In this document: piece after piece, positions 15,901 through 63,635 of the stretch | Position numbering within the stretch: position 1 is the first letter of the stretch | How the letters are laid out: each line of letters starts with the position of its first letter | Assembly: GCA_036172245.1 (NCBI GenBank) | Contig: JAYWIR010000122.1 | Location: forward strand, 1-64,000 | DNA from: Raillietiella orientalis | Lineage: Eukaryota | Length of the DNA stretch: 64,000 nt | Reading direction: 5' to 3' | Translations under genes and position numbers: made by a program | Notes under the pieces: generated by a model | Told to the model about the DNA's origin: nothing | Database searches by the model: none | What the model saw: only the letters and a program-made list of their open reading frames with translations

Positions 15901-18900
15901 TGAAAAGTCTTCTTTGGAATTATGGGTTTTATTTTTACTTTGTGTCACATCCGACTCACAATCAGTTATCTGTTTTGAAGATTGTGAAGTACAAACGTTG
16001 TTTTCTTAATACATAAAAACAGTCAGTTCTTTGGAGAAAATAGTAATTATTTGCAATAAGAAGCAATGAATAAAATAATCAGACAGTGCTTTTAGACTGA
16101 AGGTCTCCGAAGCACTTTGCAATTTTTTAAATTAACAGTATTCAAAGAGGATACCTGTTTTAATGAATCCTTGATGAAATTCAAAGGCATATTTTTGAGT
16201 TCCGTTTTTTTCCAGTCTTTTCCTAAGCCCCGGTGTGATTTCTAGTTTGCTAACTATGCAGGGGAAAAAAATTATAATATTTGAATTCCCATATGTGAAA
16301 ACAGTTCACTTCGTGATGTCGTGAAATTACTTTCCAACTCATGTACAAGTTCTATAAATGCAGATTCGTTATTTAAAAAATGCAAGTAACTGTTTGATAT
16401 TAGGCTGTTGTTTGATTTTAAAGCTATAAAACAATGCATAACTCATGTATTTATGAGGTCATGCACATAAATTAAATAATAAATGAGAGCTACTGTCATT
16501 ACAGTTAAAATCTCGTGTGCATTTAACGTTGTCAACGAGTTTCAAGTTAGGTGACATTGTGTCCGAATCTCTGAATCTGGAATTACAGATTCTACTATTG
16601 GTGTTTCGTGCACCTACCGAAGACAGTATTGTTTAGATTATTTTATTCTCATCTTATGTGTTTTTATTCATTTTTGTTTTTCTCAAATGTAATTCTGTAT
16701 TTCTTCAGTGTATACAGTGACCGAAATGAATCCTGCTGTTGATTTAAAAGTCAGATATTTTATGTTTTTGTTTCCCGGGAATTTTTTTTTTTGTTTTTGT
16801 AGAAGTGTGATCTCTCAAGTCATCAGAGATCACAAGCTCTAGATTTTCTTGAAGATATTGTAGTATAACCATGAGTCCTCCGAACTCGTATTTGAATGAG
16901 CACGTTTTCTTTGTGGCTCTGCAGTTCTGTAGCTTATGGATGGATTTTAATAGTGTAAATACAGAATTCAGCACCAGCCACAAATACACAAATGCTCAGT
17001 AAACAGTACCAGTCTTCTCTTTAGGAAAGCGCTTATTACCCAGCATCTTTGGAAGCCGTTGATTGAAGAAAGGAACGTGCATTGCTTTGCTCTCCTTCAA
17101 GAAAGTTCGCAATGGAAAAAGGATGCTTAAATGACTATACATGGTTTTAATACTTGTGAATTTTATTTATTCGTTGCTGTTCGTATGATGTTTGAGACTT
17201 TCGAATTTTATATGATTGTTTCCTAGAGTAATTTGACGCACTGTGTACTGTATACATTTGGAGGCATAGGTTAAATTACAGAAATTGTTTTTGATAATTC
17301 TGAAGTTGGATTCACAAACCTATGGAATTTTTCAGTACTTTGCTTTTTCCCCCACCGTTTATTGATGTCACTTTCTACTGTATTTCACGGAAATTAATTC
17401 GAAATTCATTAATTAGTAATCCATTTTTCTGTGCGTACGTACATGGAGCACATGCGAATGCAGAAAGAATTGTAAAAATGCTTTTAGATTCTTTGGAGTC
17501 TTAAGGAAAAAATGTTTAAGTGTGAAAATGCTTTTAACGTTATAAACGACTGTAATGTCCCATATTTGAATATTAACAAAACTAGATTTGTATGTATTTT
17601 CGAGTCTTTGTGATTCAATAGAGTAACGCTTTGTTTTGATCCCAAACTGCAAATGCATATGCATTTGCTTTTTCAGTAGCTGATTTTTTCCGGGTAATGT
17701 GGTTGAGCAGCATTTAAGAATTTGATCGATTAATCTAATTTGATTAAATTATTAATTATTAGTTTAATTTGATTGATTAATCTAGGCAATCATATTTTAC
17801 TCACATGAGTCCGCAAATAGACGCTTTCTAAAAGCCTTTTTAAAGCAGGTAGAAAATGTCTTTCCTCTTCTCGATAATAAGGAGCATCTGAAAACCATTT
17901 TGAAAAACAAAACAACAAAAAAAAAAAGGTAAAGTTCAATAAACGAAACTGACAATTTTTTTACGATGCTGTTTTGTGTTGTTTCTTACCGGATTTTTTC
18001 ATCCAAGTAGCAGATGTCTTCAGAATTCCCACTTTCAAATTTATAAATGGCATTGTACGTATAAAGCAACTCCAGAAGTTGTGCATCTGTCGTTTCGCTA
18101 TTTGAATGCCTAAATGTTAATTACAATTACAACAGCCATTTGACATTATTCACAAAATTGGAAGCTTATAAGGAACATTGTTTTAATGTACTTAAATTCG
18201 ATAATTCCAATCTAATATTTGATCCAATTGTAACAACTCTAAACATGTATTTATTTTAAATAAATACGTGTTTAGAGTTATTTTAAGTAAATATATGATT
18301 TGAAATAATATGCAATACATTTTTTTTATTCTGAAATTTCTTTACTTTGCTAAATGTATAGATTTGCTGATTTGAGTGCGTACCTCTGAATCAGTTTGTC
18401 CATACCCAGTTCTTCTAAACATTCAATCTGATTCCAGCATGTGTTTTGGTCTGGTAGGCTGATTAAGGTTTTGATTATAAGAAGCATTGCGTAGCGCTTT
18501 ATTTCCGATTCTATATCTTTGTTGCACATGATTTTCATTATTGCGGTCCATGGTCTTTCTCCTGTTGGATATTTTTTACGGATAAAATATATCACAAAAA
18601 AGTTTCTAAACAAATTGAGTAGCTGATTTTCATAAAGAAGCGTATAGCTCATTCATGAAAAATGTGTTAATTCAATGATATACGAACTCTCACCTCTCTG
18701 CGTTTCCACAGCCTGTACTGCTGTTATTAAAGTTGACGAATTAGACTCCGAATAGTCAATAAACACAAGCAGTAATTTGAGGGCACTTTTAAGAATAACT
18801 TTTTGGAATGTAGTTGTTAAAGTATATAACCATTTCACAGTTTCAATATGTGCCACAATTCCATTCATGCCATCTACGTATAACATTATTTGTCCCAATG

Positions 18901-21900
18901 CTAGAAAGGAAGATATTTATTTTGAATGAAATGTAATTAGATATTAACATTAGTCTGCTTGTAAACAGTATACACTAGTTTAGAATTTTGTTGCTTCACT
19001 TAATACTTGTAGTTCACTACTACTGAGTTACGTGACGATTCGAGTTTATGGATTACTGAGAAAACAACAGCAGTTATATACGCTAAAGTACGCAAAACGC
19101 GCTTTAGTGGAGGGGAGATTTTCGACTGTACATGCCGGGCGATACTATTTGAGAGTAATTTCTCTTCTGTGAGCTAAAGTTTGGCTTGGTCTTCTTGACT
19201 AACAGACGAACAAACAGGCGGATAGTACAGATGAAGGTATATAAGAAAGCTCGTACAATTATTTTAAATAATGCGTTCAAGAGTACTATTTTAAGAAAAA
19301 AGCAATATAATAGAAAAGTTTGCACATAAACTCCCCACACCTGTCAAACATATCGAGAATTTTCCTGAAACCAGACAATATCACATGGGAACAATTAGCA
19401 GGATTAGTAGGAAGCATAAAAAATGCACGACTATTAGGTGTTTCCACCTTTAATCTGAGAGCATTCGGCAACTGCTGAACTAGCATAACTTCCTTATTTC
19501 ATAGTGCCAGTGGTGGAACCGCAAGGAATTTTGTTACAATACCCAGAAGAATGCAACTTCATTAGAAGAATTGTTTCATTCGTCATTTTAAATTTCGCTT
19601 CCTGCATAAAAGTCATTTGCAGTATTATGTAATCGGTATTTTAGAAGTCAGCAAGTGATTTTGCATATTTGTTATTTACAAACCTTGTTTTTCGTGCTTT
19701 GCTGTTTCATTACTGTTTTTACAGTGTATCTGGATAAATGTTAAGATGCAAATGTTTTCGCAGCATTAACCAATTGAATGAAAATGTATTTACTGGTTAA
19801 TTTATTGATGATAATAAAATCAGTGGTTACTGTCTTGATGAAAAACTTGTAATTATCGGTGGCAAACTTAGTGGATTCCTGATAAACATAGGAAAGCAGA
19901 TGCCAAGTAGTTGAATAAAATTTTCACGAGATGGGTGCTAGTTAAATCGAGTATTCTGCACCTTAAGATCGTTCACAAGGATCCATAAATTGTTGGAAAT
20001 TCTAAAACGATAGGATTCAAATTTATGGTAAAAAAATTAGTTTGAAGTGATGGCAATGAGTATGTAATCACATCTTTGGGGACATTTAAACTGAAGCGGG
20101 TTTTTAAGAAGCACATTAATTAGCTTTAGTTGGATCCGCTAGTAGTCTTTCACGTAGAAAATAGTTTGTCATAAACATTTATAATTGGAACTTCACTTTA
20201 AAGTATCTTAAGCCACATATTTGTTTCCTGGTAATTAGGCTGCCAAATTCATGCTTATCTTATAGTCAAGCGTAGTTTTCTTCTCTCCTAGAGACCATTG
20301 CTTTATGATGATGATCGCATTTTTTGTGTGTTTTTTGCCTTTTCGACACAAAGATGAATCACATACTTGGGTAATTATGAATTATGGAAAAGCAATCAGT
20401 ACATTCTCAATCCAAAAACATTTAAACAACAAAGATTAAAATTCCCATTAAGAAAAAGTCTTGAATTGAGGTAGAATGTTTAGTTTTCATGCACCTAAAT
20501 GTATTTGCACTTTCTAAGTCTTCCAGAAGGTATTCTGCTCACGGAAGTTTAAAAGCTTATAACTTTTATGAAGATCTTGTTTGGCTTGCTATTTTTTCCC
20601 ATAATATATTCCAAGAGAAGAATGTAAAAGGAGCTTGCAAAGTTTGGAAAATAATTAATCGTAAATATATCATAAAGTATGCGCTATCATAAAGTGCTCA
20701 TTGATTGTAAGGTAAGGGGAACTTGTGTGCGTTCGCTCACTCCATCTCCCCTACTTTCGAGAGGATCGTGAAGTCACATAAATTTAGTTGTACACGGTGT
20801 GCTGAAAACACATACCCTATTTGAAGTTTGATGGAAGTAGTCATACTTTTCTGACCGCAGTTATAACTAATGATGAAATGTGGCTCTGTTTTTGCTTCCT
20901 TGAAACACAAGCGCCTCCCTCGTGTTGCCTCTTAAAAACTTCAATTAACAAGCCACTATCTTGAAAGTTACTAATTTGAGGGATTACAAAGTTCATGTTT
21001 ATCCGCTCTGGGTACTCGTGGAACACGTTAACTGTTAGAAATCCAGAACTTCACGAGAACACCTATAAACAATCCATAAAGACAGTTTCGATATTACAAG
21101 GAATAAACTACCGATTAATGACGTGTTCATCACACTGCGGTTCCCCCTATTTCTATACGTTTCACGATACTCTACAGCTTAATCTTTGCTCTCGAGCGAA
21201 AGATTATAGGTCTTCGAATAGGTCTTTTGGATGTCTGAAAAATCATATCCTCAACTTTTTTAGTAAACAATCTCAAGAAAGAGACAGCAGACTGATCTTG
21301 AAGTAGGCAATGTGATAATTCGCTGCTTTCCTGATGCAGATTCGTATGGGCAAACAAGTAAAGTAGAGAGGTGTTAAGAAGTAGGGCTTGTATTAGGGAA
21401 TGCATTTGCGAAGTTTCATTAGATTCCAATCAGTAATTATTTTATTACTTTGTCATTTAATGTCATTCATAATACCTTTTGCCAGCACTTGCCTGCGTGA
21501 ACTTTCGTGGAAATATTGCAAATGCCTTTTTATTCGGATTTGGTTTGCTATCTCATGAAACCTTTCAGTTTTCTAATCTTGTAATTTAATGCGAGACCTG
21601 TAATTGTTTTGAATATCCTTTTTATACTTTGATGTTTCCAAAAGTGGGCTCTGATATTTGTTGAAGACTTGAGTTGTATACAGAATTGTTTTATTGTCTC
21701 TGATTAATGATCGTGGGATTAAAGAGGATTTCCCTATATAATTCCGAGTGGCTATAACTATTGTGGACGCAGTAGTTGTTTTTAATTAAGAATATTCTAT
21801 TTAATTGCTAATTATGATAAGAGTTTTAATGGATCATCCAGGAAGATTTACAAATCTTTAAACTTTTAAAGAGAATGATCAGCACCTCTAGGATGGGAGC

Positions 21901-24900
21901 AGAGACAAGTATATGTTTTTTTCTCAATAGCTATAAGTGATTAGTTTTTTAAACTATTGTAATAAAAATTGTTAACAGCTTGCAGTTGCTTAGAAAGAAT
22001 TAGAGCTCATGATAATAAGCACTTCTGAATTTGAAATCTCAAAAATTCATTTTCTTTTACCTCTCAGTAGGTAGTTCTGATAGATAGGCTCGGCAATCAA
22101 TCCAATTTTAACCATAGGTTCTAAACCTCCTTTTTGCACAAATTCTGGTATTACTCCTTGATCATCCTTTACCGGAAAAAAAACAACACAAACCGCATGA
22201 CTGGAATTGCATGTGAATTCACAGGTGCATTTTTTCTATAATTTTGTTAGTTTTCTTTATAATGTCCTGTCAGTATCTGTAGTTCAGTACTAAATGTTAA
22301 ATCGGTAAATGTTGTAGATTTAGAAGAAATATCCATCAAGTAAACCTACAAGTATTCTACAATTCATCGCTCACATTACAAAGTAATACTTTTATAGTAC
22401 ATCATAAAATAAATTCATACACGGTCTTCGTTCGGATTTATTGGTAATAGTATTTGAGAATTCTAATGCAAATAGAATTTCAAACACATTCCTGACTTCT
22501 GTTACGAAGTTATGAGCGTCTTCCAACTACGAACATTATAGGAAAACTGAGAACCAAGACAAATGAATATACTGATCATTATACTTAATCGTCTCTCAGT
22601 AACACAATAGAAATTATGTTCTGCATGCACACTATCTAGAAATAAGAAAGCAGTTTATAATTTGATTTAAATTTTGATTCATTTGCTGAAAATTCGTTGC
22701 TAGCATTAAATAGAACAAACAGTCCCTTTTGATCTTGGACTGTTTGAAGCACAATAAACCTGGTACCTGGTAAGTAACACGATGAGCAGATTGTGAAGGT
22801 TCATTCAATCAGTCAATTTAGTTGTTACTCAAAAAATGTTCTAAACCTCTACTAGTTTACGGGATGCACTTTCTTTTTCTGTTCCACATACTGTTTGAAC
22901 AGTATATAGCACTGAACTAAATAAAAGCTAAAGTCAAAATAGTTTCCAATATAGTTCCTGATGGGCACATTAGAGTGATAAACCGATCAACCACGGAGTT
23001 TTCAGTTAAAACATCTCTGACTTCTTAAAGTTGACAGACCGATTAACTAGAGATCATGTGATCTATGCAGTTTTTTCTGAACTCTAAATGCTCTCCAGAA
23101 TGTTTACTTTTAAAGAGCCTTTTCATAACGTGACTGTTTCCATATTTGAATAGCTAAAGCAAAATCTTTAATGTGTTAGTTAATTAAATTAGCATCCTAT
23201 ATGCATTTATAATTCATTTATCGTTTCTGATTCTCGCTGTTGAGCTATCTGTCGATTACTTTTATTAATTTAAAGTAAACGCATAATAATGGCAGAAGGA
23301 AAGAAACTTCGTGGTTTTCTTTTGAAACTAAGAAAATCCGAGTTTTCCAAAGTCCAACTGATGTGGATCATATGGAGTTTTTAAGCTTTTCTAAAGTTTG
23401 TTGATAGCCATCAGTTGCCCTATCTGTTCCTTATGTTTGATGTTCCAGAACTCGAACCTCAAATACTGAAAGTACCGTACATGAAAGGGAGCTTGATTCC
23501 TAATATGCAAATTAACATCAAATTCTGTCCTTCTATTTGTAAAATCACGTTGCATTCGATTCATTGATGTGTATAAATTATCTTGATATAACTGGGCTAT
23601 CCTGAATGTCTGAAGTGGCCGATTCTTTATACTTGGAGAAGTCACGACGACTCCAGCTTTTCGTAACACGTTGAGCTTTCGAAATTCAGGTAAGTTTAAC
23701 TCCGATGTTTCTTTGTTTGGTTTAGAAAAATTGTAATTCATTGTAAAACGTTCACTTCCGTAATAACAGTTCTGTTGAATCGCTAGGGTTTCTGCATTTA
23801 TCATCTGAGTTTTACAGGACTGGAACTTCATGTTTGTTCCTAATTAGGCTTAATTCTGAAAGAGTTTTTTCTCGGCAGTATACATTCTTTAACATCTACA
23901 TCTTCAGTGCTTGTAGTTCTACTTTCATCAAAATTTGTAGTTCTCTCATTTACTTAATGTCTTTGTGTATTTATCCGTATCTTTTCATGTAATGTGTTAT
24001 ATCGCTGCATGCAGCTATAATCATTGCAGTGTTGAATTTGAAGGATTTTTTTTCTTCTCATAAATTCTGGAAGATTTCTTTGAAATGGTAATATATCTTT
24101 CAATTACTTGGACTAGTTTCTTAGACCGTGTCTACTTACGTTGTACGACTTGAAAATGAATGAGCGAACACACGCATTGGATAGCCATGTGAGTTCAAGT
24201 ACTTTCAAATACTTACGAAACAGTTTTTGTTTACTAAAATTCCGGCAGACTTCATTTGCATTCCATTGAAAATCTGGAACTCAATCTGGAAGCTTACTCG
24301 ACTACTGATTCCAGAGAACTTGTTTTCTAATTGCACATGCGTCGTTAATGAACTTCCACAGTCCCCCCCCCCTCCCCCTCCTCCTCTCAGTGAATGCGAA
24401 GTTGGTGGGTGCTGTGATAACAAACAAGACGGCAAAATGCGACTTGGATTCAGGTGATAAAAAACATAATGAAATGAAATTAGTGCCGCAAATGGTTTTT
24501 TGTATAGATGAGCCATTTTCATATGGAATTTCAGAGTATGGTACTTTCGAATTTTGACTTTTATCCATATCTTCAGAATAATGAGATTTGAAAAATATAG
24601 TATTCTGAAGAAGGTTCACTTTGATATACATTTAAATGTGGTGCTACTCTCTCGAACTATGCATTCTCTTTTCACCATTTGGCACACGGTCCAGAATTCG
24701 AGTTCATTAATCTGGAACTGACAAAGTTCTTGCTGATTTATGTAGTCTTTTGTGTGTCTTTACAGGTTTTTCCATTTCCTTCAACATGGTTACAGATTGA
24801 TTAACAACTTGCAATCTTGGCTTAAGGAGCACTTTAAAAAAAAAAAAAAAAAGGGAAAGGAACTAGCTGAACTATTCCGGTTGTGGATGATTCTCGATTT

Positions 24901-27971: not shown

Positions 27972-30199
27972 GATTTCATTAATCACTTTCCACAATGCCA
28001 TTTCTACTCGGCCAAAATGGTAAATAATCAATTAATAAAAGTAATGTTTTATGTCACTTTGTTTAATCAGTTTTTTTTATTGGCGTATCCACTACGGGAA
28101 GGATGATTAATGTCATACGGCATTTACAATAGATCAAAATTATTATTTTTCGTATTTTAAAATGTTCATACAAATATAAAGAAGGATGGAATCTTTGTGG
28201 TTTGGTGTAAATAACATGTTTAATCTGCTTGAGGAAAACAAATGAAGACAAAATTCAATAAATCTTAAAATTTGATCAAAATGATAAGTAATTGAAATAA
28301 GAACTTTTTTTTTTGTTTTGTTTTGTTCAGAGTTCCAGTCTTTTTGTTCCCCTCTGCATTTCTTTTGTTTCATGTTTTGTGAACGTAATCGTTATTTAAC
28401 ATATTTAACATAAACTCATTTTTCGAGCTCTTTTATTCATTTTTTCCGTCCCTTTCCAGCGCCGACAACTGAAGGAAAATAACTCACCTAATGGTTGAAT
28501 GGGTGGAATCAAAGGTCACTCATGTAGTGTAAAAGAAGAAAAATGAAATAAAAAATTGATTACAAATCTCTAGCTTAGGAAATTGGCATTCCTTCTGTCT
28601 AGAACTTGTGAGAGGCAACGACTGTGGCCCGTTGCAAGTTCCCCATGATTGCTTTAAACCATGGTGTTTTCTGGCGACGTACCTTTTTCTTTCTTTCTTT
28701 CTTCTTTTTTAATATTATAGCTGCCTAGAAATATTCTGAGTTTCTCGGGTTCACGAGTTACCTTATAAGTTAAGTTCCTGTGTATTAAACGAATGTTACC
28801 GTGAGCTAAAGTGGATATTTGCTCTACTGAGCTTTTTTTTCTCCTATCTGGACACACTCGAATTATCGTGCATTCGGATAAGCTAACTCTACCATGAGCT
28901 AACCATTTCTAAATAAACCGTTTTTTTTTTTCATGTATGATTATCAAAAGCAAAGTGCAATGTTTCTTATAATTCTCATTTGCAATCTAAACTTTTCTGA
29001 CTGATGTTTCGGGCTAGGCAATCAGAAAACAAGGCAACCAAAAGAGCAGGCTTCGGAATAATGACATAAAAACAATGGAAAAAATAAAGTAAAATGCAGC
29101 ACGAAGTAAATTCATAGCTCTGAAGAAAAACGAAATGTCCTACAGCATGTATTTTTTAAAACGTTTTATATGCCAAGGAAAATTTACAATAGGTTTCAGA
29201 TGTGAAAATGACAGGAAAATGATCATATAATCATACTACGCATTATCTGCTTATGCTATTGCTTCAGAAAATAGCTTTCCATACTTTGCAATCATAAATT
29301 CAAAGCAAGCTCTCTTCTGGTAGCAGGAACATTTTGATACTATACTCTGGTAGCACACATCGCCGCAATCATTTCCGGATGTGTTTCTCATGATGATCAT
29401 GCATCGGCTCTTGACTTCATGCAATTGGATATGCGGCATTGCTACCAGATATGGTACAACACAAGAAATCAAGATACACCAAAGTATAACAGTAAGCATA
29501 CTTGCTTCGTACATTCGTACATCCTCGTTCTTCGAGATAGAATCATGCAAGATGTAAACTACGACTGCCATTTGCTATGAGTGCTGATGCAAGCGAGAGA
29601 GAGAGCATGAGATTTTCCATAGCTAATTTCACTAGCTTCACGAAGTCGAGGGACTGATTTCGAGTCTCTTCTCACTCTTTTAGACGTCCCCATCCACGGA
29701 ATTCTTTAGTAAAAGGCGAAAGAATTATGCGTTAGAATGGGGACCAGAGTTTCTTCTCACTCTTGTAATTTTGATTTTCTTTTCAATTTCTTCTTCATGT
29801 TTCCAAAATTCCTGATATAGAAATGTGAAATTCTGAGCTTTTTTCCTGTAAGAAGATTCCTTATGCAGATTACTTATTACTTTTATCTTTTTTTTTAGTG
29901 AATAATGATGATGGTTCGTTCATAATACTTTGGCAGGAAGTATGCTCGTCCCGATGATCATCTTAAAGGTTCAGCACCCTTGACTGCATGAATATTTTTC
30001 CTACTTGTTTTATAGTCTTTAGGGATGGCATAAATATTTACTGGCCTTATGAATTTTCGTAGATGACCTATGAGCATAAAAATGGGTGTTCGGAGTAAAT
30101 CACATGGCTACTAGCTTTCTAACTCCTCTAGGCTAGAGATCTTATTCTAGTTCAGAGAGGGAAATTGACTAAAGATTCCGTTTTGATGTTCGTCACGAT

Positions 30200-51026: not shown

Positions 51027-53426
51027 TCAATAGAAAATGGATTTGACTTTGTGGAATGGAAATTTTTTCAATTCTTCTTGGTGTTTTCTTCTATAGTCCC
51101 AGAGGTAAAAATCAACAAAGATCGAATTTATGATATGAGATGGATCAGAAACCAGTTGTTTCAATTTATATACGACTTTTTCAACTGCATGAATAGAACA
51201 ACCTCTTATTTCTATTTCTTCAGAACAACCAGGAGATAATGGCTGATCTACAAAAGTAATGTTAAAACAATATGCTCCAAATGTGTTTTGTCTGCAATAG
51301 TAAACAAGTAATTAATCCCCAAATTTTTAGTACCAACAACTATAAAGAAAAACATGAAAAGGCAAAATCCAAAGGCAGACTGTTTTCCTATCTAGAAATG
51401 CGCTATACTCTTTGTTCCATAACATTATATTACTTCATATTTGCAAAACTGGTAGCATCACAACATGCATGAATGAATTCCAAGAGAAAAAATGAATCTT
51501 GTATAAGCAAACGGCAAAAGTACTTCACATAGCATGATACTTAGATACCATCATGTAGACAACAAATAACATAAAACTAAAAAATGCCCTCACTTGGACA
51601 AGGTACAGTTTTTGAATCCATAAAAAGCAATTTGCACAAGCATCAAGAAAACATGAAATTTTATGTAGATCTGTTGTGTTAAGTAACTATAAACTGCAAC
51701 TATACCAACTAGCAGTATGAGACCTTCATTATCAGTTTGAAAAGATATTTTCAAAAAGGTATCAACTTGCTAATAAACGGTTAATGAAATAATGCTTATC
51801 TTTAAGAGAATACAAAAATCCCTTGCAATCTCAGGAACAAATGTAAAAAAAAAATCTGCTTTATTTGTCACATACGCCTTGTTTCAAATGCTTTAATAAT
51901 TTCTATTTTCTACATACAGAACATCGGGACACAAATGCACATATTTGAACGCTTAGATTTACAGATGGTTTGGAGGCATACATCATGCACTGATTGCTCC
52001 AAAAATAACGAAATTCTTACAACCTTGAAACTTTCAAACAATTTTAGGAATAATAATGCAGATGCTTGACATTAAGAAGATACCAAAGTATACAACAATA
52101 ATAATAAATCAACAGGAAGAATGCACGAAGAACAGATTTCAGTGCAAAGACCACAATTTCAAGGTCTATTTTAAATGTAAGATTAAACACAAACTAAATG
52201 AATTTGAAGGCCAAAAAGCAATACACACATTAAAAAAATTGCAAAAATCTTAAAATATGCAAGACTTTTCATCTTGTTCGTTTCATTGTTTTGAATCACA
52301 TCAAGCATAATCACACAAATTTCCCTACACACAACTTTTGACTATTTGAAAATCACTTTCATACATCTCACATTACCTGAAAGCAAAGATTCTAGTAATT
52401 CTGTAGAATATGATAACGCACCAAAAGACAACAACACCTGCGGTACTCTGCAACATATCAATGTGACTGCTATCACACAAGATAACTCTTCACACAAACA
52501 AACCTATAGTCAGCAAACATTGTTAACTGGTCAATATCATCAAAACATCCTAATCCCTGTCCTTCAAAACAACACCAAAGGTCAGCAATCAAGATCTGTG
52601 CTTTCTTGTGAAATGCAACTGCAATTAACATTGCATGATGAAACAATATTATAAAACTCACCAACATAACCCTCATAAATGGCAGTGTCACAGAATGGAG
52701 GGAAGTCACTGGTTAGCACCTTCAGCAAAGCATCAGCACTATGCATACAAGAGTGTACACAAACACTAAATTTGCCTTCATATTTTTCAAGCAACTTTTT
52801 CCCTATCTGATGTAATGCATGACAAAACAAAAAAACTTCGCAGTATAGGATACCTGGTGCAGTACATGGCAACGCTCATTCAGCAAGGGGATATCACCTC
52901 CATCATCAGATTGAAGAATGAACTTAAGCTCTTGTAAACTAATTTTGGAATAAAAAGTGGCATCAGTGATTGGGATCCCTGCCTGTTCAAGTGAGAAATG
53001 TTCTCTTCGAAAGACCTCCTTACCTCAGATGCTTTATTTAAGGCAGCACACAATGCCATATATCCTGTGTATTGTTTATTCTTCCATGTTACTGCATATG
53101 ATTTGCATCCACTATTCCAGAAACAGAAATTCAAAGCATCCACTACAAAAAGCCACTCAGCTGCTTGATCACTTGCCACAATGGGATGAACATCGTTCTC
53201 CTTCCATGAATGCATGCCAAATTGATTCTTGTTCAAAGCTCGTAAAATCTACCAATACAAAGTAATACAATAGAACTATTCATGATGATGGATGTGCCTC
53301 ATTTCACAGTACCTCTCTGACAATAGCAGCAATGCCTTCATCTTGAATGTGGACATGGTGTGCTTGAGATGCTATCATATGAGCACCTTCTCGTGGATCC
53401 AATAAGATTGAGTACGTAGGACTATC
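51027..53426 (-). CDS. QNG1: Queuosine 5'-phosphate N-glycosylase/hydrolase (queuosine salvage protein, C9orf64/DUF2419); start codon probably in an upstream exon at 56093-56073
   Basis: Exons 53426-53313, 53248-53024, 52982-~52854, ~52806-52662, 52618-~52504, ~52447-52377 and 51247-51027. Peptides LLDPREG, WLFVVDALNFCFW, YTGYMALCAALNKA, GIPITD, AFHKKAQILIADLW, DIDQLTMFADYRVPQVL, EIEIRGCSI and NSIFVDFYLWDY...PFHKVKSIFY*. Confidence 0.93.
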
Positions 53427-53537
53427 CTGAAACCAAATTGTGAAAATTTGCAGTCAAAAATTGTGCATGCAGCAAAATGGGCAACTATTTATAAGAAAAT
53501 TTCCTTGACCCAAAATGCTGTTCTCTAATTTATCTAA

Positions 53538-53543
53538 TTTATT
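53538..53543 (-). terminator. Candidate polyadenylation signal of PLA2G15
   Basis: AATAAA on the minus strand ~40 nt after the PLA2G15 stop and ~110 nt before the QNG1 acceptor. Confidence 0.55.
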
Positions 53544-53581
53544 GCAAATTATGTTGACACAATAACAATTGTGAGCCACTT

Positions 53582-55909
53582 TTAAGTTTTTTCGTTTTCA
53601 AACTGTAAAAACAATGATCTCAAGTAACTGAGTACTAGTTCATTGTGCAATATTGTCATATGGTCCACACCATGGTATGTTTGATAATAAACTTTTTGTG
53701 GCTGTGTTTTCTTCCATTCTAGACATGCAGCTAAACTTCGCAAGTTCACAGTGCCATCACCATCTCCATAACTTATATAAGGATCTTTTCGTAACCATGT
53801 TCCAGCAGGATATTCCAACCTGAAAGCATGAAATGAATCACTTTATTTTCAAATTTATTTACTATAAATCGAAACACCTATTTATTGTTGGTAATCCTAT
53901 TCCATGAAGACAATGTACTTCCACTCCTGGTGCAGTCAGATCAGCTATCAAATGTTCAGTATCCTTCCTCATTTCCCAACCTACTAAATAATCCACATCT
54001 CTAAAAACCAAAACAATTGAAAGGCATAGAATCACTATGACTCAAAACATACTTAAAAAAACGTTCATAATCATTAACTGTATAGTTGAAAAATTCATTA
54101 GCAACCAGAACTTCATCTGATCGCCAGAACTTTTTGGAAGGCATCAAGAAAGAAAGACTTGGAGAAGAAATCTGCTGTATCTTAAGAGAATGCGCATTTA
54201 ATAAATAGACACCTAAATCATCACCTGTAAACACAAACCTCAGCATATGCACTATTGTCTGGCACTTACCAGCAACATATACTTTTAAAGCCTTAACAGT
54301 TCCAGCTAGACATCCATTAAGACTAACAAATGCTCGAATATATTTATCTTTCCATGACTGTTTCATTTGGTTCAAAAAAAACAAAGTAAATGCTGAACCC
54401 ATGCTATGGGAAATTAAAGTAACTCGAACATTTTGATTTTTTTCAAATGTAGTCTCAATAAGCATTTTTAAATTGTCAAAGAATTCTGAATGTTCATCTG
54501 GAAATATGTGTGATCTAATGTAAACTAACAGATGTACATAATTGGAAAAAATGAATGCATACTCATTTTCAATACAGCATGTGAAAAGAATGAACAGTGA
54601 AAAGTGGAATCACAATAAAGTTACTAGATGAGAATCCAAACTTACTAGGAGCTTTCCTAAAATCAAATGGTGCACCATGCAAGTGAACTCCTCTTACATA
54701 CTTAAATTCTAGCAATAATTCTACTATGCTATTAAGGTACTTGCTAAGAAAAATCTGACTAGGATCAAGATATTCTATAGTGGTTGTATTTCCAAATCCC
54801 GGTACATGTATTGTGACACCTGGTGTATTTGATGTTGTTCGTGTTACATTATTGTAATACAGCCTCATGTTATCAACCTAAAATTTGTCTCAGAAAAGTC
54901 ATTCTACAATTTATTAGACAGTATCAAAGGTAAGATACAATTTGCAACATCCTTAAAAAAATCCACTATAGCACTAATTTTGAAAAAATTAAAATTATCA
55001 TGATCTTCATAATTTGCATCAAAAATAACCACTTACAAGGCAATCAATAACATAAGGAACCAAAAGCTCAAGGTTCAGCCATAAATCAAAATAATATGAA
55101 CTTTGCTTTTGGCAGAAATAATGTACAGAAGTTGATTTACTCAAATAAGCTTCCAGCTGACTTCCTCCATCACCTGGAACTATAAAAAAGACCAGTTTAT
55201 ACTCACAAACATACCCAAAGGATTTGCGAGCAAATACCAAATGAACAGAATTAGCATTTAACATTCATAGGCATAAGAAGTTTGGTAGACTTTGTAAACA
55301 TTATATATTTACAAAGTCTACTTAACTTCTGAATCACAATACACAGACAGATACAAAACTAACGAAATTATAAGTAAAAGAATAACAAGAAAAAAACAAA
55401 TGAAAACTTTAACGAGCATTTCAAGTACAATTAGTTAAAAAATGAAATTGCTGTCTTATGCTTCCCTCAGTATCTGAAACCTACCTGAAATAGGAAACTA
55501 TTGAATGCAATGAATTGACAATGAGCATTGATTGCAATAACAAAACACTTATTCCCAAAGTAACTGTCGTTACGTAACAAATTAACTTTTTAAGTGTACA
55601 TGCTTTACTCTTGTGGTTGCCATCATTCTAGAGTTCATATTTATTGTACAATTATATATTTACACAGCATACTGTATCTAAAATTCAATGTTTGTGTATG
55701 AAATATGTAGAGGTACACACTCTACACTTGGAATCCACAATTCATATAGCATCTTTTTTTAACTAGCAATAACAAAGTATACTGTAGTTCGAAGATGCTT
55801 CGTGTTTATTTAACATACTATACTTACCAAGTACAACAGGAGAAATGCTCCATACATCCTTGTAAACACCAACAAAACAGAGTGCTATAAGATAGTTACT
55901 CAGGCACAT
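53582..55909 (-). CDS. PLA2G15: Group XV (lysosomal) phospholipase A2 / LCAT family
   Basis: Signal-peptide-like first coding exon 55909-55828 (MCLSNYLIALCFVG...SPVVL), then VPGDGGSQLEA, WLNLELLVPYVIDC, VPGFGNTTTIEYLDPS, GAPFDFRKAP, catalytic SHSMG, APGVEVHCLHG, YGDGDGTVNLRSL and GVDHMTIL. The Ser/Asp/His triad motifs are intact. Confidence 0.92.
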
Positions 55910-56072
55910 TCTCAAATACTACCCATAGTCTAACACACACTGTAATCTGCTAAGAAAAAATCAATAACTATTTGATAATTGCAGTTTTTAATAAACCGGC
56001 AATTTGAAAACGGTATGAAGCTGCAAAAAACAACTTTAGCCCAATCATTCCTAGATGGCCAATGGGACGTAC

Positions 56073-56130
56073 CCTGCTGCTTACACAACGCATATTGGCA
56101 ATAGAACCACATAAAAATATGCGATGCAGA
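56073..56130 (-). other. Candidate first exon shared by PLA2G15 and QNG1
   Basis: Ends in the donor AGG|GTACGT at 56073/56072 and contains ATG CGT TGT GTA AGC AGC AGG (MRCVSSR, phase 0). The 5' boundary is approximate. Confidence 0.55.
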
Positions 56131-57025
56131 TTTTGGACCGAAATAAAATTGACACGATTTTACTGTTTCATTAAGTTTTCAAGGATCGCCTAATTTAATT
56201 TGCTGATTGAATTCTTTTTTCAAAATCTTTCGCGTACAAAACCATACAGACCAAGTTACAAATTTTGCATTACTATGATCTTAAACTATTATGTATTTTA
56301 CGTAATACCGTGCTTGGTGAATTCCTAAGGATTTCCGTTAAAACAGAGCGGCTCTCGACTACTTCGCAAAGAACTTCTGACCACTTTGAAATTGCAGATC
56401 CTGGAACCTACAAATTAACGTTTGTGCAAACAGCTCGCGAATTGTTTCATTCATCTCCGAAAGTTGAGAAACAAGGAAATCTTTTAGATGAAACAGGTGA
56501 TAAATCTTATTGTGCAAAATCGATTAGTTACAAATGCAACAGATCCTATTGCAATAACACTTCCAGTCATGATGTTTTCATAGTGGACACAAAACTAATG
56601 TAAACCAGTAGGTTAATGTACACCCATAGGTTGATGTATGAGTAATCAAATCCAAGTACTTATCAGAAATTTAGAATAATTAGTGCGAAATATCTCGATC
56701 ACATAGAAAAACTCATGTTTTCTTTACAAAAGTACATTCTTTGGCTCCTGTCACTAAAAATGAAAAGATGTTCTATTTGCTTGAACTCTCAGCATGCTAG
56801 GGGATATTAAATAGCACATGTCTAATTACTAGAATCAATGAAGTTTTATCGTATGCGAAACTGCAAAGAGTGATGTATTAACAAAACCACAATTTTCCCC
56901 AAGTCCCACAAGGGGTGGGGTAAATTTATTTTTCAATTTTTAAAACATTCATACTACAATTTCCATTCACACAATACACTACCACTTTCACTTGAAGGCC
57001 CTTTGGGTTACTCAAAGTTCTGCAC

Positions 57026-59331
57026 TCAGGGTGGGTTTCCAGATGTTTGGTCCCGGGCGTCGTCCTCAATCCTCTTCAGGATGAATCGGGACGTCCAGGC
57101 CTGGAGTCGTCCACAGTTCCTGATACCGATCTCCCTGAGGATGAGTCCTTGTAGGATCTCCATGGGGGTTCTGGTTCTCCTGGCTTTCCTCATATTCCAC
57201 CACCGCACAAGTATGGCGGTGAAGAGAGCAATGGTCATCCTCACCATGGGATTGTACCAGGGAACATTACCATCTCCCTGAAACATCCCGGCGAGGATTT
57301 CCATCACAGATTTGTTGTTTTGTCCTATGATCCTTTTCAGGATCAGCCAGTCGCGTAGCAAAGTGGGATACGTCAAGATGTGGAGTCTCGTATCGATGTC
57401 TCCACATGCCGTGCAGTCTTCCCGTCTTCCTGTGAAGTGCTTGAGCCTGGACCCGCTCTGGATTCCTCCATGATAGAACATCAGGAGGTCGTCCAGGGTG
57501 TCCGGCGGAAGGTCACTCCTCCAGAGTGTCGTGCCAATCGCCAACAGGTTAAAACGGTTACTCCCGTAGCGATCGGAGGCTTTTTGGAGGGTACTGGTGT
57601 CTTGGTCTTCATCCTTAATCATTCTTCGGAGGTTCATCTTGGTTACCCTAGACCATGCGAAGTCGTTGTGGTTTTTCCAGACTTCGCGAGTCTTGTGGGT
57701 AAACCTACCTAACATCATCTCTATATACCGAAGTATACGAGTGTGATGTGGGTATACTCCTCTTCTGAACTCCTGGATGCGTTGTAGGGTAACTCTGGAC
57801 CGCTGGTAGATCCAGCTTCTGGTGTCCTGGAGGACCGGAAGCATCCATGGGATCACCAGGATGGACTCCTCCTGCCAGAGTTCCCTACTTTTGGGCACGA
57901 TTTTTATCTTGTGCTTTCGCACTAGCCTTTGTTTTCTTGTCCAGGTGGGGTCGATGGTTCTCCATTCCCCTGTTCGGCCTAGCAGCGCAGTCATCAGGCC
58001 TTTCGAGTTGTTCAACAACAACGCGTAGGCCCTGTGTGCCGCGTATGACCAGTCGTCCCAGTGAGTAGCGATATCCAGGATGTGTCGCGTATCCATGATT
58101 TCCATGGAATGTGCAAGCGACTTCATCCCGGAGCCGCCTTCTTCCCTGGGACGACACAGTTGTTTCAACCGACTCTTGGGCGATAGTGTCCCCACAATGT
58201 CTTTCTCTGCAGCTTTTCCACTTCTCTGGTGTTTTCTTTGTTCAACCTGGAGAAGGCCGTTCCGAAGAGCACCTTTGGAAGGAGTACTCCATTCCATAGG
58301 TTGGCCTTTCGCTTCATGTCAAAACCCAGTCGGGTGTACTTCGCTGCTTCCTCTGCCGTTTTCCCCAGCATTTCCTTCCACAGTAGCTCCGACGCAGAGT
58401 CGTCGCCAATGTGGACTCCCAGGTACTTGGACGTGTCCAACGTTCGGAATCCTCTCCCCGTGTGAGCGGAGAGGTCCAGGATTCCGACGGGCAAAAGCTG
58501 GCTCTTCTGGGCGTTGATCTTCAGGCCCAGTCCCTCCTTCATGAGCATCACCACATCCAAAAACGCTTGTTGATCCCTCTTTCCCCTGATGAAGAAGAGA
58601 AGATCATCCGCGTAGGCGAGATGGGTGAGCTTCTGGTTGTCCATTTCCATCCCTTGTAATCTCCCACTCTTCTCAATGAATGAAGAGAGCGCCTCCATAT
58701 AGATAACAAACAGCATCGGACTTAGCGAGTCTCCTTGCCGGACTCCTCGTTCCATCCGAATAGCTGCTGTTTCCAAACCGTTGATCTTTATCCGGAAACG
58801 TTGATTCCGGAGGATCATTTCCACGAAGGTACTGGAGTATTCCGGAAGTCCCAGCTTTTCCAGAATCTTCAGCAGCATCCCATGGTCGATGGTGTCGAAG
58901 GCTTTCTCCATGTCGGTGAACGCCAGCACCAGGTTCTCGCCGACGTATCTGCTACGTCCCACGGTAGCTTGCGCACACTTAACATTGTCCGACATGTGGC
59001 GTCCGGGTACCGCACATGTCTGGACGGGAGAAATCAGCCTCGACATAACTTTGCTTCAGAGGTTGGCCCAGATCTTTGCAACCACTTGGCATCCGAGTTA
59101 AGGATTGAGATTGGCCTCCATTGAGTGACCTGCGTTAGATCACCTCCTTTTCGGCAGCAATCTCGTCCTACTCCCTCAGAAGGACTCCGGCAATCGTCCT
59201 TCTTAGAAGCACACGATGTCTTGTTGTGCGATGATCCGCACAATCCTTCTTCTTTTAACCTGGTCGATCAGACCATTTACATTCCAGGAGGCGATGTTAA
59301 TCCTCCTGGCGGTCGATAGGGTTGAGGCCAT
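57026..59331 (-). pseudogene. ORF2 (APE stub fused to RT and C-terminal zinc knuckle) of the Tx1-like element
   Basis: RT motifs lie in ORF 58165..59046 and the C-terminal part in 57026..58297. There are stops and frameshifts at ~59000-59205 and ~58200-58290. Confidence 0.88.
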
Positions 59332-59343
59332 AAAGGGGAAGAC

Positions 59344-61211
59344 CTACTTCTTGGCCTTCCTGAGCTTCTTCTGTCTGGGAGAGCGTGGTGCTCTTCCAGA
59401 CGAAGAAGAGGGAGCGGGTTACTCGCTGCCAGCGTCTCTCTCCGTCCCGGTGAGATTGGTGATATCGGTCTCCTCGGTGGAGTGCTCGGCTCGTGCGACG
59501 AGCTTGCGTGGGAGGGCTTCCAAAGCCATCTTGGCTCAGAAGTTTGCCTTTACGTCGAGAAGTTTGTCTTCCAGTTTCTCGCGCTCGGCAACCTCCACCA
59601 CCTGGTTGACGGTTTCTTGTGCGTTGCAGATCTTCTGCAGGAGTTGCTCCTGCTGAGGTCTGCTCTTCACTTCCATCACCTCCTCCGCCAATTTCTCGAC
59701 CTCTTCGGTAGTCTGCAGGGCCTCCTGCGACACCGGAGTGGATTCCACCTTTTCCGCCCTATCGCTTTCTTCCGCTACTTCCATCTTTTCGCCTTCCACT
59801 GCCAATACTTCCTGGGTTAGAGGAGTTTCCTGCTCCTTGACGAGCATCTTCCTCTTCCCCTTCTTCCCAACTTCAACAAAGCCGTCCGCCGAAACCGGAG
59901 AGGCCTCCCTCGCCTTCCTCTGCTTTAATTGTTTTTGCGGTTTCATAACCTCCGCCAAGACCTCCCTTACGGGAGACTGGCCACGCATCGTCCGGTAGTT
60001 TGCGAACTCCGGGCAGCTCCACCTCGCGTGCCCTGGCTGCTTGCAAAACGAGCAGACCTCGGGCATATCGCAACTGCGTACCAGGTGCCCTGCTTCCCAC
60101 AGCGGAAGCAGCGAGACCTGGGGCAGGCACCCTGACGATGGCCGAAATGTTTGCAACCTGTGCGGAACACAGGTTGCTGCCTATGAAAGATAGAGACCTC
60201 CTGGGAGTCTCCATCAATATGCACAATCCCAGGGTTCTGTGCCTCCTCCTGCAGCTTCACCTTGGCGATCACCTCGCCAGAGAAGATTTTTCCTGAGAAG
60301 AAGTTCTGGAACTCTACCTCCAGAATCTCCCCAAACTTGGACAAGAATTCCCAAACGGCATCCTGCTCGGTAGTGACGCCAACACCTCTCAGGAAGACGG
60401 TCATGTACGGCATTTCGCCGATCCCACAGACCATCCGCCCCTGGATGTTGATGCCCTTCTCGATCAGGGCCTCCCTCAGTGGTTCACTATCTGTATAGAT
60501 AGTGAACCCCGATGTACTCGGAATGATCGCCTCCAGACGATCAAGTCCACATTGGTCTTATATAAGGCCATAAGGCCTTACATTATTGAAGCGGATCAGT
60601 CCGGTCTTAAACGTTATCGGTTTGGATTCCGGACTAAGCCGCACAATCGGCTCCTTGACCCGGGTGATCTTTACCCTCTCGGCTCTGCAAAATTTTCTCT
60701 GCGGCTGGGCACTTGCCTGGCCCGCCGCCACCGCTGCAAAAGGAAAAGGCTGCACCGCCGCAGCCGAGCAAGATGGCGTCGCGATGTTCGCCATGTGGAC
60801 GCCCGCGGGTCCCGCCTGGGACGCCGCCTCGGGCGTGACCTTATCCGCCGCCGCGAGCGCGACCCTTGGCATCGCCGCCGCCGGCGCGACCGTTGCGGCC
60901 GCGGGCGCGATCCTCGGCGTCGCCGCCGCGGGCACGACTTCCACTGTCGCCGCCGCGGGAGCGATCCTCTGCCTCGTCGCCGCCTCGCCACTGCCGTACT
61001 GTACCTCCATTTCTTCTATGGGGGACGTCGGCCTCCTCGCTCCTCCTACTGTTGCCTGCATCCTGGCGGCTGGTACTGCCGCTGAGGAAGTTTGCAGGTT
61101 TTCCGCCGTGGTCTCCTCGGCGCTTCTGCTGCAGTTGTAAGAGATGATCCTCGGCAGCACTGTCTTTTCCACACTCACTTTCTTATTGACACTTGTCCTC
61201 TCAGGGCACAC
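59344..61211 (-). pseudogene. ORF1 (gag-like, RRM plus 3x CCHC) of the Tx1-like element
   Basis: Overlapping ORF pieces 60558..61211, 59967..60434 and 59536..60156, and a basic tail SPRQKKLRKAKK* ending at 59344. Confidence 0.85.
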
Positions 61212-61234
61212 ACGATCACAACTGACTACAATTA

Positions 61235-61279
61235 ATTAACCGTCGTGATCACAATCAAACCTTGAAGCCAGGTAAGTAT
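61235..61279 (-). ncRNA. U1 snRNA 5' fragment (splice-site-binding end plus stem-loop I)
   Basis: The minus strand reads ATACTTACCTGGCTTCAAGGTTTGATTGTGATCACGACGGTTAAT. The first 13 nt equal the metazoan U1 5' end. GATCACGA (U1-70K loop) starts at nt 30, versus nt 28-29 in human and fly U1 as remembered. No stem-loop II (ATTGCAC) follows. Confidence 0.75.
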
Positions 61280-63635
61280 AACCACAACCGATTCGCCTTT
61301 CTCGCACGTGCTCTTTTCCGAATTTCAAAACTGTGAAATTTATAATTTTCCCAACTACCTAAACGTGACGTTCACGCTAACTTGTATCGGAGCAGACTAC
61401 AAGTTTCTTGAAGAAAGAATACTAAATCACAGATCTCTATCTAAGAAACAAGAATCGGATTGTTTGTTTTTATAATTTCTTCTCCCATTTGAATTTTTGA
61501 AAGTTACATACAATGTATGCAGCTTCGTATGCAAGCAGCATTCTCAAAACTCAAAACAAAATTCTATTTTCAAAACTAAAGTATATTGAATTAAAAAAAA
61601 CAACATTCTCTCAAAATTTTTATAAGTACGAACAGTGGAGACTTCTCCAAGACAGACTTTTAAAGAGCAGCGGCGGCGGCGCCGGTGGAGGGCTTCAAAG
61701 ATCTCGAGTTACCTGGTCGGCACCTGGCAGCTATTGGTGCCGTGGACTAAAGGACATGGATCAATGACGTTGCATCTGAACTGGTGACTCCAGGTCTGAG
61801 GGTGCCTAGCATCGAAATGTGGGGAGTTCGAATTGCTCTTTGTGGTATATCTGGAAACACAGGAGTGAGGGTCACGAACTGAGAAATGAACCTTGTGAAT
61901 CTGAAATGGATGACCAGGAGACGGAAGGAAGAAACAGAAAGTTGTTAGGATTTGATGCGTCACTGCCCCATCTCGCGTGGGTGATCATATGAATTCCGCT
62001 GGACTTTCTCGAATTCAAGTCCCTCAGAAGAAACTGCTGCAATCCTCTCTTACGAGCTGCCTTTCCATTACCACATCTAGACAGTCAGACAGCTAACAGA
62101 TCTATCAACCTGGTGGAATCAAATAAGAGTAGGTGGGAAAGGTCTGCTCCCTGACAACAAAGCCTATTGAATGATTTGCATACAATGTTTCACGGAGGAC
62201 TGGGGTCTTGCAGAATGTTCTTAAAGAAAATCATAAAGGTAGTGTTTTTCTGCTAGGCAAACACCACACACATCTGTCACAAGTAGAAAAAAATATTTTT
62301 TTGGGTGGGATTAGATACCTAAGAAACGTGAATGACTGTCCACTGTCACTGTACGATGATAATTCATCCGATTCAACATGCACAAAAACGCAAAAACATC
62401 GTGCATGCCACGGAAGAGCATCTCCTTGTCGAGAAAGGAAACTTCAGGGATGCTTGGAATCGTACATCCTAAATTCTGAAAAAAAACAGCGTTTTTCTTT
62501 TCAGAATTAGCGTTTTAGAGCTTTTCAGAACTTTTCGAATTAGCGCTTCTGAGAAAAGCTAAAATGCTTCTGCTTTGAAATGAGTTTTATTTGCTCGTTT
62601 CTACTTTTCTGTAGGCAGATATCCTCTCTTTCCATCAAATATTTTACTACAATAATCGTTGTTCTGAATATGCACTGAAGTTGATTTAAAAGTTCGGATT
62701 AATGATGCCAAACTCACTCCTTGAACTCCATTAATTACCTGTTTGTTCTGTGTTATAAGTATTTCCAATGTATTGAACAAAAGACTTAAAGTAAACTACT
62801 GCCCTGAATTGAAAGAAAAACTCAGATTAGGTGCAACGATATTTGCTATCATCAAGAATAATATGTATCGATGCCTCTTTTATAGATTGAATTCACCCAA
62901 AGCAATAATATTTATGCTGCACATAGACAGTTTCGGCTTCTTATTCAGCTATATAGGCACTGAAAACTATTATGGTATAACATCATGTTGCCTCTGATTT
63001 GATGAATTAGGCTACATGGCTCCAATTGCTTGATCTTGACTCATATATTTATTTTCATTACATAGATTTTCGTTTTTAATGGAACACTGTTTAACCATGC
63101 AGATTTGTCTTTTTTTATTTAGTTCTTAAGGTTTGCGTCTAGGCAATGAAGAGCATCGTTGACTTGAATTTCAGACATGCAAACATAATTTGCTCCTTTT
63201 CCAAATGTTTATATTAATGTCCAATACGAAATGTATAAGTTACGAAATGTTTTGGAATTTCTGAAGGTTTAGATGTCCTATCATACTTTATCCATATCAT
63301 ATTAAGATTGGGTATTTGTTAAAAGTAATGTCAACATGTACAAATTTTTGCTTCATTTCACTTGCATTCTTGTTTCTTTCTATCGCTTTCTCTCAGAGTA
63401 TCACAATTTTTTATTCATGGATCAACAAGATTTCGATTGACGGTTTAAATTATTGATAGAGAGTATAATTCGTTAACTTGGCATAATTTTCGAAATTGCA
63501 TAAAAGCCCATTACAGGGAAAAACGAATTTACGGACGTCATGGAAACAGAAATCACAGGAAAAAAGAAAAACTGAGTTAGTATTTAAAATACAAAACCTG
63601 AAAAGACAAATCGAGGCACGACAAAAAATTCTCGA

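Follow-up and report, generated by a model that had tools for sequence, protein, structure and literature searches.

A candidate shared first exon for QNG1, a gene without its own start codon directly behind PLA2G15 in Raillietiella orientalis

How is an enzyme translated when its gene carries no initiation codon of its own? The question is raised by a stretch of 64,000 nucleotides (nt) of Raillietiella orientalis DNA, hereafter the window (contig JAYWIR010000122.1, positions 1 to 64,000; G000:C122:1-64000 of a 210-Mb assembly in 491 contigs), in which QNG1, the gene for a queuosine salvage enzyme, follows the phospholipase-like gene PLA2G15. The two are intact neighbours on the same strand with 155 nt between them, and QNG1 opens at a splice acceptor instead of an ATG. 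Judged from the predicted genes, the best single explanation, to which we would give about an even chance, is that a 5′ exon shared by both genes is cis-spliced onto QNG1. The gene models are as follows.

53582 to 55909, minus strand: PLA2G15 gene, seven coding exons, 405 amino acids, open frame with GT-AG introns.
55909-55828, 55179-55037, 54877-54646, 54497-54270, 54224-54053, 54000-53878 and 53819-53582, minus strand: PLA2G15 exons, with intron phases 1, 0, 1, 1, 2 and 2.
55947 to 55965, minus strand: acceptor in the PLA2G15 5′ untranslated region, a NAGNAG with acceptors at 55950 and 55947.
51027 to 53426, minus strand: QNG1 gene, seven coding exons, 339 amino acids without an initiator methionine, open frame matching Pfam Q_salvage.
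53426-53313, 53248-53024, 52982-52854, 52806-52662, 52618-52504, 52447-52377 and 51247-51027, minus strand: QNG1 exons.

The QNG1 frame contains no internal stop, the gene is single-copy in the assembly, and its product matches Pfam Q_salvage (PF10343) above the cut-off and is 46% identical to a full-length relative across 338 amino acids. The model carries HKKAQ, FADY and a terminal FY, the human counterparts being YKRAQ, FADY and YY; roles for a helix-hairpin-helix lysine, a catalytic aspartate and a C-terminal tyrosine in QNG1 are described in part of PMC9881137. The acceptor TTTCAG ends at 53427 and the gene reads DSPTYSILLDPREG from 53426 in phase 0, so that the first-pass annotation, which began the exon at this acceptor about 155 nt past the PLA2G15 stop, had its coordinates right. 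With 8 pyrimidines in 13 positions the acceptor is ordinary for this locus, where the 12 internal acceptors of the two genes span 6 to 10. A protein database search with QNG1 yielded two relatives among 27 candidates and no copy of this QNG1, the sole named match of a QNG1 exon being cladoceran, and an exact 20-mer of its exon 1 had no match in the metagenome contigs.

The earliest ATG past the acceptor is the in-frame Met17 at 53378. Initiation at this internal ATG (HMIAS), once offered as an alternative, does not agree with the conservation of the protein. The conserved LDPREG motif stands upstream of Met17, residues 9-16 align to columns that are filled in 36 of 38 full-length relatives (the proteins of 300-400 amino acids among 151 matches), and the column of Met17 itself holds Phe in 22 of 36 relatives. 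When a profile of the eight columns before Met17 was applied to open non-coding 8-mers, only 4 of 4845 scored equally well. The human QNG1 N-terminus bears a matching motif, and the nine residues that precede the motif here fall among the 3-16 found in most relatives. By its predicted sequence, QNG1 must be translated from upstream of Met17, and since the gene has no start codon of its own, splicing must supply one. Gene finders would either cut QNG1 short at Met17 or merge the two genes, which makes the locus useful for annotation.

The PLA2G15 frame runs without an internal stop to a TAA at 53584-53582. Its model opens with a signal-peptide-like N-terminus, its intron 1 is of phase 1, and a Pfam LCAT match identifies the family. 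In a comparison of one exon, the closest solved relative was group XV phospholipase A2 (E 2e-14, vs 3e-7 for LCAT), with the HSMG nucleophile motif aligned. The predicted product is an LCAT-family hydrolase nearer PLA2G15 than LCAT, with a lysosomal location that is putative. Short introns prevail at the locus, 7 of the 12 in PLA2G15 and QNG1 being 41-58 nt long. Two more LCAT-family genes lie about 16 kb apart on another contig (G000:C24 ~146,700-164,300; pieces L007-L013).

Where transcription begins can be judged from two further features.

53427 to 53581, minus strand: spacer of 155 nt, with AATAAA at 53543-53538, zero CpG, a blocked ATG at 53468 and the acceptor ending at 53427.
55950 to 56500, minus strand: CpG-rich promoter-like patch with a CpG observed/expected ratio (o/e) of 1.17, the sole such patch ahead of either gene.

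The only ATG of the spacer (53468) is in the QNG1 frame and has no GT after it, and it is blocked by the TGA at 53456-53454, as had been noted. Inspection of the spacer for CpG and for ATGs and donors found no usable ATG exon and no promoter footprint. Its AATAAA, the predicted poly(A) signal of PLA2G15, lies 117 nt ahead of the QNG1 acceptor. The genome generally shows gene bodies depleted of CpG and gene starts near expectation, and CpG-rich starts are also seen at TRAPPC12 and PEDS1 in the window. Here the o/e is 0.31 in the PLA2G15 body, 0.21 around the spacer and 0.29 in the QNG1 body. Invertebrate gene bodies are known to be methylated, and the profile can be read as one unmethylated promoter region, presumably the patch at 55950 to 56500, followed by one methylated unit. 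Because the only CpG-rich patch lies upstream of PLA2G15, PLA2G15 and QNG1 are very probably co-transcribed as one transcription unit.

An ATG that could serve QNG1 is found within this patch, next to a strong donor, and the elements that bear on its use are these.

56073 to 56093, minus strand: coding end (MRCVSSR) of the candidate shared exon, with donor AGG/GTACGT at 56072, phase 0.
56084, minus strand: weaker phase-0 donor, exon end 56085.
56021 to 56036, minus strand: competing acceptor, 52 nt behind donor 56072, a normal intron length here.
55828 to 55857, minus strand: second ATG in PLA2G15 exon 1, off-frame for PLA2G15 and in the QNG1 frame via the intron-1 donor.

The exon end at 56093-56073, its donor and its phase stand as the first-pass annotation gave them. 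Scored with a generic donor matrix, donor 56072 is the best GT across 56900-55910 (990 nt), and of the 12 true donors in the two genes it outscores 9. An ATG 21 nt ahead of it is open and in phase 0 to QNG1, and a donor as strong accompanied by such an ATG arose in 7% of 3000 shuffles. We consider it plausible, though somewhat short of an even chance, that the exon ending at 56073 supplies the start and thereby a QNG1 of 346 amino acids beginning MRCVSSR. It is improbable that the start comes from either of the other two sources taken jointly, the PLA2G15 exon-1 donor with ATG 55857 or donor 56084. The statement that the signal-peptide exon cannot be fused in frame to QNG1 applies to PLA2G15's own frame, because ATG 55857 lies in the QNG1 frame via the intron-1 donor. 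Two fusions in the PLA2G15 frame were rejected: in the last exon the phase-0 donor in that frame scores -4.6 bits, and a skip from the phase-0 intron-2 donor, formally in frame, would give QNG1 a signal peptide and is unsupported.

We picture one PLA2G15-QNG1 transcription unit whose promoter would lie in the CpG-rich patch at about 56.0-56.5 kb. In the majority of transcripts the PLA2G15 exons would be spliced and the RNA cleaved after the AATAAA at 53543. In the fraction escaping cleavage, the ATG-bearing 5′ exon would be cis-spliced straight to the acceptor at 53427, so that the whole of PLA2G15 would be removed as the first intron of QNG1. Use of the poly(A) signal at 53543 or read-through past it would decide which mRNA is made, and the borrowed ATG would be coding for QNG1 and merely open an upstream open reading frame (ORF) for PLA2G15. 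The promoter, the junction from 56073 to 53426, the read-through and any regulation are what we infer here; the gene models, the missing ATG, the donor, its phase and the CpG pattern are read directly from the DNA. Of the proposal that one promoter is switched between two enzymes, co-transcription and the need for an upstream start are borne out by the CpG profile and by the conservation before Met17; a regulated switch is unsupported. Cis-splicing and trans-splicing of the same 5′ exon are indistinguishable from DNA.

The layout is not confined to QNG1, as three further downstream genes lack an ATG behind their acceptor. MMAA begins 144 nt behind PAM16, and CCDC134 begins 167 nt behind a class II PI3-kinase (PI3K-C2); at both, the first open AG is of phase 0. 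The PAM16 5′ region has an ATG directly followed by GTAAGT, which fits the phase of MMAA. The first coding exon of PI3K-C2 likewise has an off-frame ATG directly followed by GTAAGT (piece L106, 199-191, minus strand), which fits CCDC134; this near-perfect donor is the best in 1.5 kb and lies 9.3 kb upstream of CCDC134, and 2.3% of shuffles produced an equally strong one accompanied by an in-phase ATG. SNAPC1 begins 280 nt behind PCED1, and the strongest of its AGs, with 12 pyrimidines in 13 positions, calls for phase 1, which is the phase of PCED1 exon 1; a second AG, 5 nt on, is of phase 0. At all four loci (QNG1, MMAA, CCDC134 and SNAPC1) the best donor in a 550-nt 5′ window holds an in-phase open ATG, for which shuffles give an expectation of 0.22-0.29 per locus. 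By eye the predicted N-termini are plausible, mitochondrial-peptide-like for MMAA and signal-peptide-like for CCDC134. The ATG-less layout at these three loci favours a shared 5′ exon over its rivals. COMMD5 was not located, a COMM search of the genome having returned two other paralogues. A second copy of about 700 nt of PI3-kinase sequence, made up of internal exons and introns, lies ahead of the start of that gene (L106 ~3880-3150; L105 ~4700-3975; minus strand).

Several observations weigh against the cis-spliced shared exon. Acceptor 56021, at a distance of only 52 nt, should capture donor 56072. When 56073 is instead joined to the PLA2G15 acceptor, an out-of-frame ORF results that ends 14 nt past the PLA2G15 ATG. 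Donor 56072 is thus compatible with PLA2G15 only with an overlapping upstream ORF, unless acceptor 56021 is used, in which case the upstream reading frame closes 78 nt short of the PLA2G15 ATG. The earlier suggestion that this donor can reach the PLA2G15 acceptor near 55950 therefore holds as far as the presence of acceptors at 55950 and 55947 goes, and is complicated by the competing acceptor and by the ORF running over the PLA2G15 ATG. In shuffles of 56500-55950 the best donor gained an open phase-0 ATG in 23% of 3000 cases. The junction from 56073 to 53426 has at least one in-frame cis alternative, and such a second option arises by chance in 11% of cases, an off-frame ATG like that at 55857 being found in 81 of 716 comparable coding stretches. 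The junction also needs seven exons to be skipped, and at CCDC134 about 9.3 kb must be skipped. The comparison loci were pre-selected, and their scoring windows were set after the sequence was seen. The PAM16 and PCED1 donors belong to the upstream genes' own first coding exons, so that only the phase match counts there. All four acceptor regions also hold a phase-0 AG, at SNAPC1 as the second AG only. A pyrimidine-richer AG has to be skipped at MMAA and CCDC134 (19 and 10 nt upstream, respectively), and because richer AGs are bypassed at these genes the second AG of SNAPC1 may be the one used. Finally, an AATAAA stands 93-144 nt ahead of the acceptor in all four ATG-less pairs, a spacing like that in nematode operons.

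Tight same-strand clusters also occur elsewhere in the genome. A survey covered 670 kb that had not been picked for gene pairs and, with 290 of 458 and 300 of 406 CpG-poor ORFs compared with Pfam, yielded two clusters with four junctions.

G000:C6 ~4,402,400-4,396,500 (L202 3400 to L201 7478), minus strand: ZMAT2-CCDC93-NDUFA5-C2H2 zinc finger, one CpG-poor block with spacers of 75, 164 and 217 nt.
L215 7356-7116, minus strand: RING-finger gene, then RPIA (ribose-5-phosphate isomerase), spacer 241 nt.

The spacers of the ZMAT2 cluster contain no AATAAA, and a strong AG stands before each downstream gene; ahead of RPIA an AATAAA lies 16 nt before the ATG, between acceptor and start. Each of the four downstream genes carries an ATG of its own after an AG, and because of this the clusters do not discriminate between the models. 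An AATAAA at 93-144 nt is seen in 4/4 ATG-less pairs vs 0/4 own-ATG junctions, and on these small numbers there are perhaps two junction classes. The four-gene cluster, which turned up without having been selected beforehand, resembles an operon, and such a unit is more easily resolved by a spliced leader than by skipping, a further point on the unfavourable side. The survey gave one further candidate pair, upstream of an aldo-keto reductase; one other candidate pair was dismissed as a single long UTP20 gene.

The rival explanations differ in where the AUG of QNG1 would come from. An unlikely one, in our judgement, is that a spliced leader ending in AUG is added at 53426 after 3′-end cleavage of PLA2G15, placing Met directly before DSPTY. 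It would account for the phase-0 open AG that comes first at QNG1, MMAA and CCDC134 and second, after the pyrimidine tract, at SNAPC1; it leaves nine residues before the motif, within the range of most relatives (3-16); and the clusters described above, the operon-like spacing of poly(A) signal and acceptor in four of four pairs (PMC1657053, in part) and the flatworm leaders that supply an AUG likewise (PMC9851317 and PMC12582326, in part) all speak for it. Against it, phase 1 is required at the strongest acceptor of SNAPC1, coincidence would have to account for the in-phase cis donors of four loci, and the four Parhyale leaders given in the part of PMC5111886 available end in ACTG, not ATG. 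The distance from acceptor to ATG is a multiple of three for 3/4 of the strongest acceptors, too few to count. Nor did Rfam, pattern, 5S or DNA scans, all of them insensitive, find a leader RNA gene. The Rfam SL1 search of the genome gave 0 matches (50 of 32641 candidates scored; the control was also blank). A guessed donor-plus-Sm pattern gave 13 matches vs 11 in the control, none of them multi-copy, and a guessed promoter pattern derived from U5 gave 11 vs 13, with only 4 U5 genes. With an Sm-plus-3′-box pattern there were 21 matches vs 10, of which 5 are U4/U5 and the other 16 are not leader-like by eye or Rfam. No leader family was seen in the neighbourhoods of 5S genes at 10 loci, out of 43 5S matches, and a scan of 1.03 Mb of DNA (overlaps included) produced 350 donor-plus-Sm-like matches and no recurring leader. 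Dispersed leader copies are known (PMC8527503, in part); the candidate 5′ exons here are not such copies, because six of them share no common motif longer than 9 nt. Overall we judge the cis model to be a few times more likely than an AUG-ending leader, by a rough weighing and no computed test. The two models, cis exon sharing and spliced-leader trans-splicing, predict different readable 5′ ends for the ATG-less downstream genes, and SNAPC1 separates them best.

Rather improbable is an operon or read-through transcript with a leader that lacks AUG, in which Met17 (53378) would serve as the start of translation, or else a near-cognate codon, for instance Leu9 (TTG). Met17 is in frame and is the first ATG past the acceptor, Leu9 occupies the initiator-Met position of the cladoceran-like relatives, and own ATGs behind an AG are the rule at the survey junctions (4/4). 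Yet the family motif is retained over the eight residues ahead of Met17 to a degree far above chance, the TTG carries a pyrimidine at position -3 and stands in a column where Leu is usual in other animals, and MMAA and CCDC134, with targeting-peptide-like starts directly behind the acceptor, would be left unexplained. Promoters inside neighbouring genes are common in compact genomes, and QNG1 might have a cryptic promoter of its own in the 3′ part of PLA2G15, with an ATG micro-exon ending at 53671 or 53761, from this feature:

53670 to 53673, with a second at 53760, minus strand: ATG/GT in the last PLA2G15 exon, a possible predicted micro-exon.

Both sites read ATG/GT in phase 0 and, at 2.6 and 0.9 bits, score within the range of the true donors. 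They are also dictated by conserved PLA2G15 codons, and the region is as CpG-poor as a gene body (o/e 0.21 around the spacer), so that we hold this origin to be quite improbable. A highly improbable account is an assembly or allele artefact, whereby the TGA at 53456 is wrong and QNG1 starts at ATG 53468 without a splice; the ATG does lie in frame and five consecutive T precede the TGA, but a promoter would still be needed in a CpG-free stretch of 115 nt that holds the poly(A) signal, neither gene has another frame error, and the ATG-less layout is repeated at three other loci. There is, finally, a wider reading, possible though on the unlikely side, in which many housekeeping genes of this arthropod-like animal stand in operon-like units, and a leader would make up for the lost start of QNG1, MMAA, CCDC134, SNAPC1 and perhaps COMMD5. 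That leader would be either an AUG-ending spliced leader, a type that the literature covered describes in flatworms only, or the unit's own 5′ exon, carried over an entire multi-exon gene (a private spliced leader, possibly acting in trans after 3′-end cleavage).

Synteny, which had been proposed as a check, lent the pair no support: PLA2G15 was present at none of 80 metagenome loci with a QNG1 relative, most of which are intron-free and apparently microbial. Only three of the 80 are intron-bearing and animal-like (cladoceran-like), two of them with more than 4 kb upstream. In these cladoceran-like loci the ATG stands directly at the QNG1 motif, and the upstream neighbour (two loci) is an activin/BMP-type receptor on the other strand. 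Because of this ATG and the different neighbour, the ATG-less state and the gene order are not shared with the cladoceran-like animals; the first QNG1 intron falls at the same codon as in all three of their loci.

The genome and the window hold some further features. The 5S rRNA genes are arranged as inverted pairs, about 1.7 kb apart, and each pair has a diverged 5S copy next to it (L018-L025; G000:C24, C40). U5 genes (L040, L041, L043) share an element about 57 nt upstream of their start and a downstream box, which are candidates for the small nuclear RNA (snRNA) promoter and 3′ box of this animal. Among the 22 U5 matches of the genome is a 3′-truncated U5 snRNA copy at 29662-29752 of the window (minus strand) that lacks an Sm site. 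A broken long interspersed nuclear element (LINE) at 56920-61280 of the window (minus strand) begins with the 5′ end of U1 snRNA, and the motif at its 3′ end is found again at L053 and L098, immediately ahead of the 3′ half of U5 genes, which suggests that this LINE family inserts into U5 genes. The other genes of the window are the following.

10290-12540, plus strand: PEDS1 (TMEM189); one exon matches a beetle protein best (74% identity), followed closely by rotifers and chordates.
About 1500-5260, plus strand: a gene that we take from its translation to be TRAPPC12-like.
13000-22200, minus strand: presumably an FHOD-like formin gene, named from its translation.

Downstream genes in SL2-type operons carry their own AUG after the acceptor; in QNG1 the first ATG there is Met17, past the conserved motif. 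The operons of C. elegans resemble the present layout in their unrelated same-strand housekeeping genes and in the distance of about 100 nt from poly(A) site to acceptor (PMC1657053, in part). A flatworm leader with a 3′-terminal AUG (Cheng et al. 2006, via parts of PMC9851317 and PMC12582326) is alike in that a coding region beginning at the acceptor needs an AUG; it differs in that the host here is arthropod-like, no AUG-ending leader gene was found, and one of the four loci prefers phase 1. PMC7986045 states that no operons are on record for copepods and amphipods, the arthropods it lists as leader-bearing. The literature covered (mostly titles and the starts of abstracts, with few subscription journals) held no PLA2G15-QNG1 pair and no AUG-donating leader in arthropods. 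Human CPNE1/RBM12 shares 5′ exons between different coding sequences, with poly(A) recognition versus run-through as the proposed control; those shared exons are non-coding, and the part of PMC2568002 available describes no tight packing of stop and acceptor.

Shared first exons are documented in arthropods (PMC4528330 and PMC7524744, in part), and the layout described here, as far as its structure goes, belongs to this known kind, of which ChAT/VAChT and the FlyBase class of such genes are examples. Two intact, unrelated same-strand genes stand behind one CpG-rich patch, the presumed promoter, and the nested gene has its own AATAAA, of predicted use, within the host intron. Su(var)3-9/eIF-2gamma (PMC1435931, in part) and the Drosophila shared-exon pairs (PMC4528330, in part) likewise use a single promoter and first exon for unrelated proteins, the acceptor and poly(A) site chosen deciding which is made, whereas here the ATG would serve the downstream gene only and would open an upstream ORF for the nested gene; fly names for the QNG1 and PLA2G15 orthologues are absent from 12 supplement files of PMC4528330. 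Taken alone, the locus would be one more shared-first-exon pair, with queuine salvage tied to a lysosomal-type lipase by an accident of gene order, and its interest grows when it is viewed within an operon-like pattern across the genome. The ChAT/VAChT locus of Ixodes ticks has, as here, a nested gene in intron 1 of a same-strand host, a shared first exon and separate 3′ ends (PMC7524744, in part). A difference that again counts against our explanation is that the tick VAChT ORF lies in one exon, whereas the nested PLA2G15 has seven coding exons (PMC7524744, in part). The tick genes are functionally linked and their shared exon was confirmed by reverse-transcription PCR, whereas PLA2G15 and QNG1 are unrelated and their arrangement is known from DNA alone, which makes the pair a candidate member of the same class.

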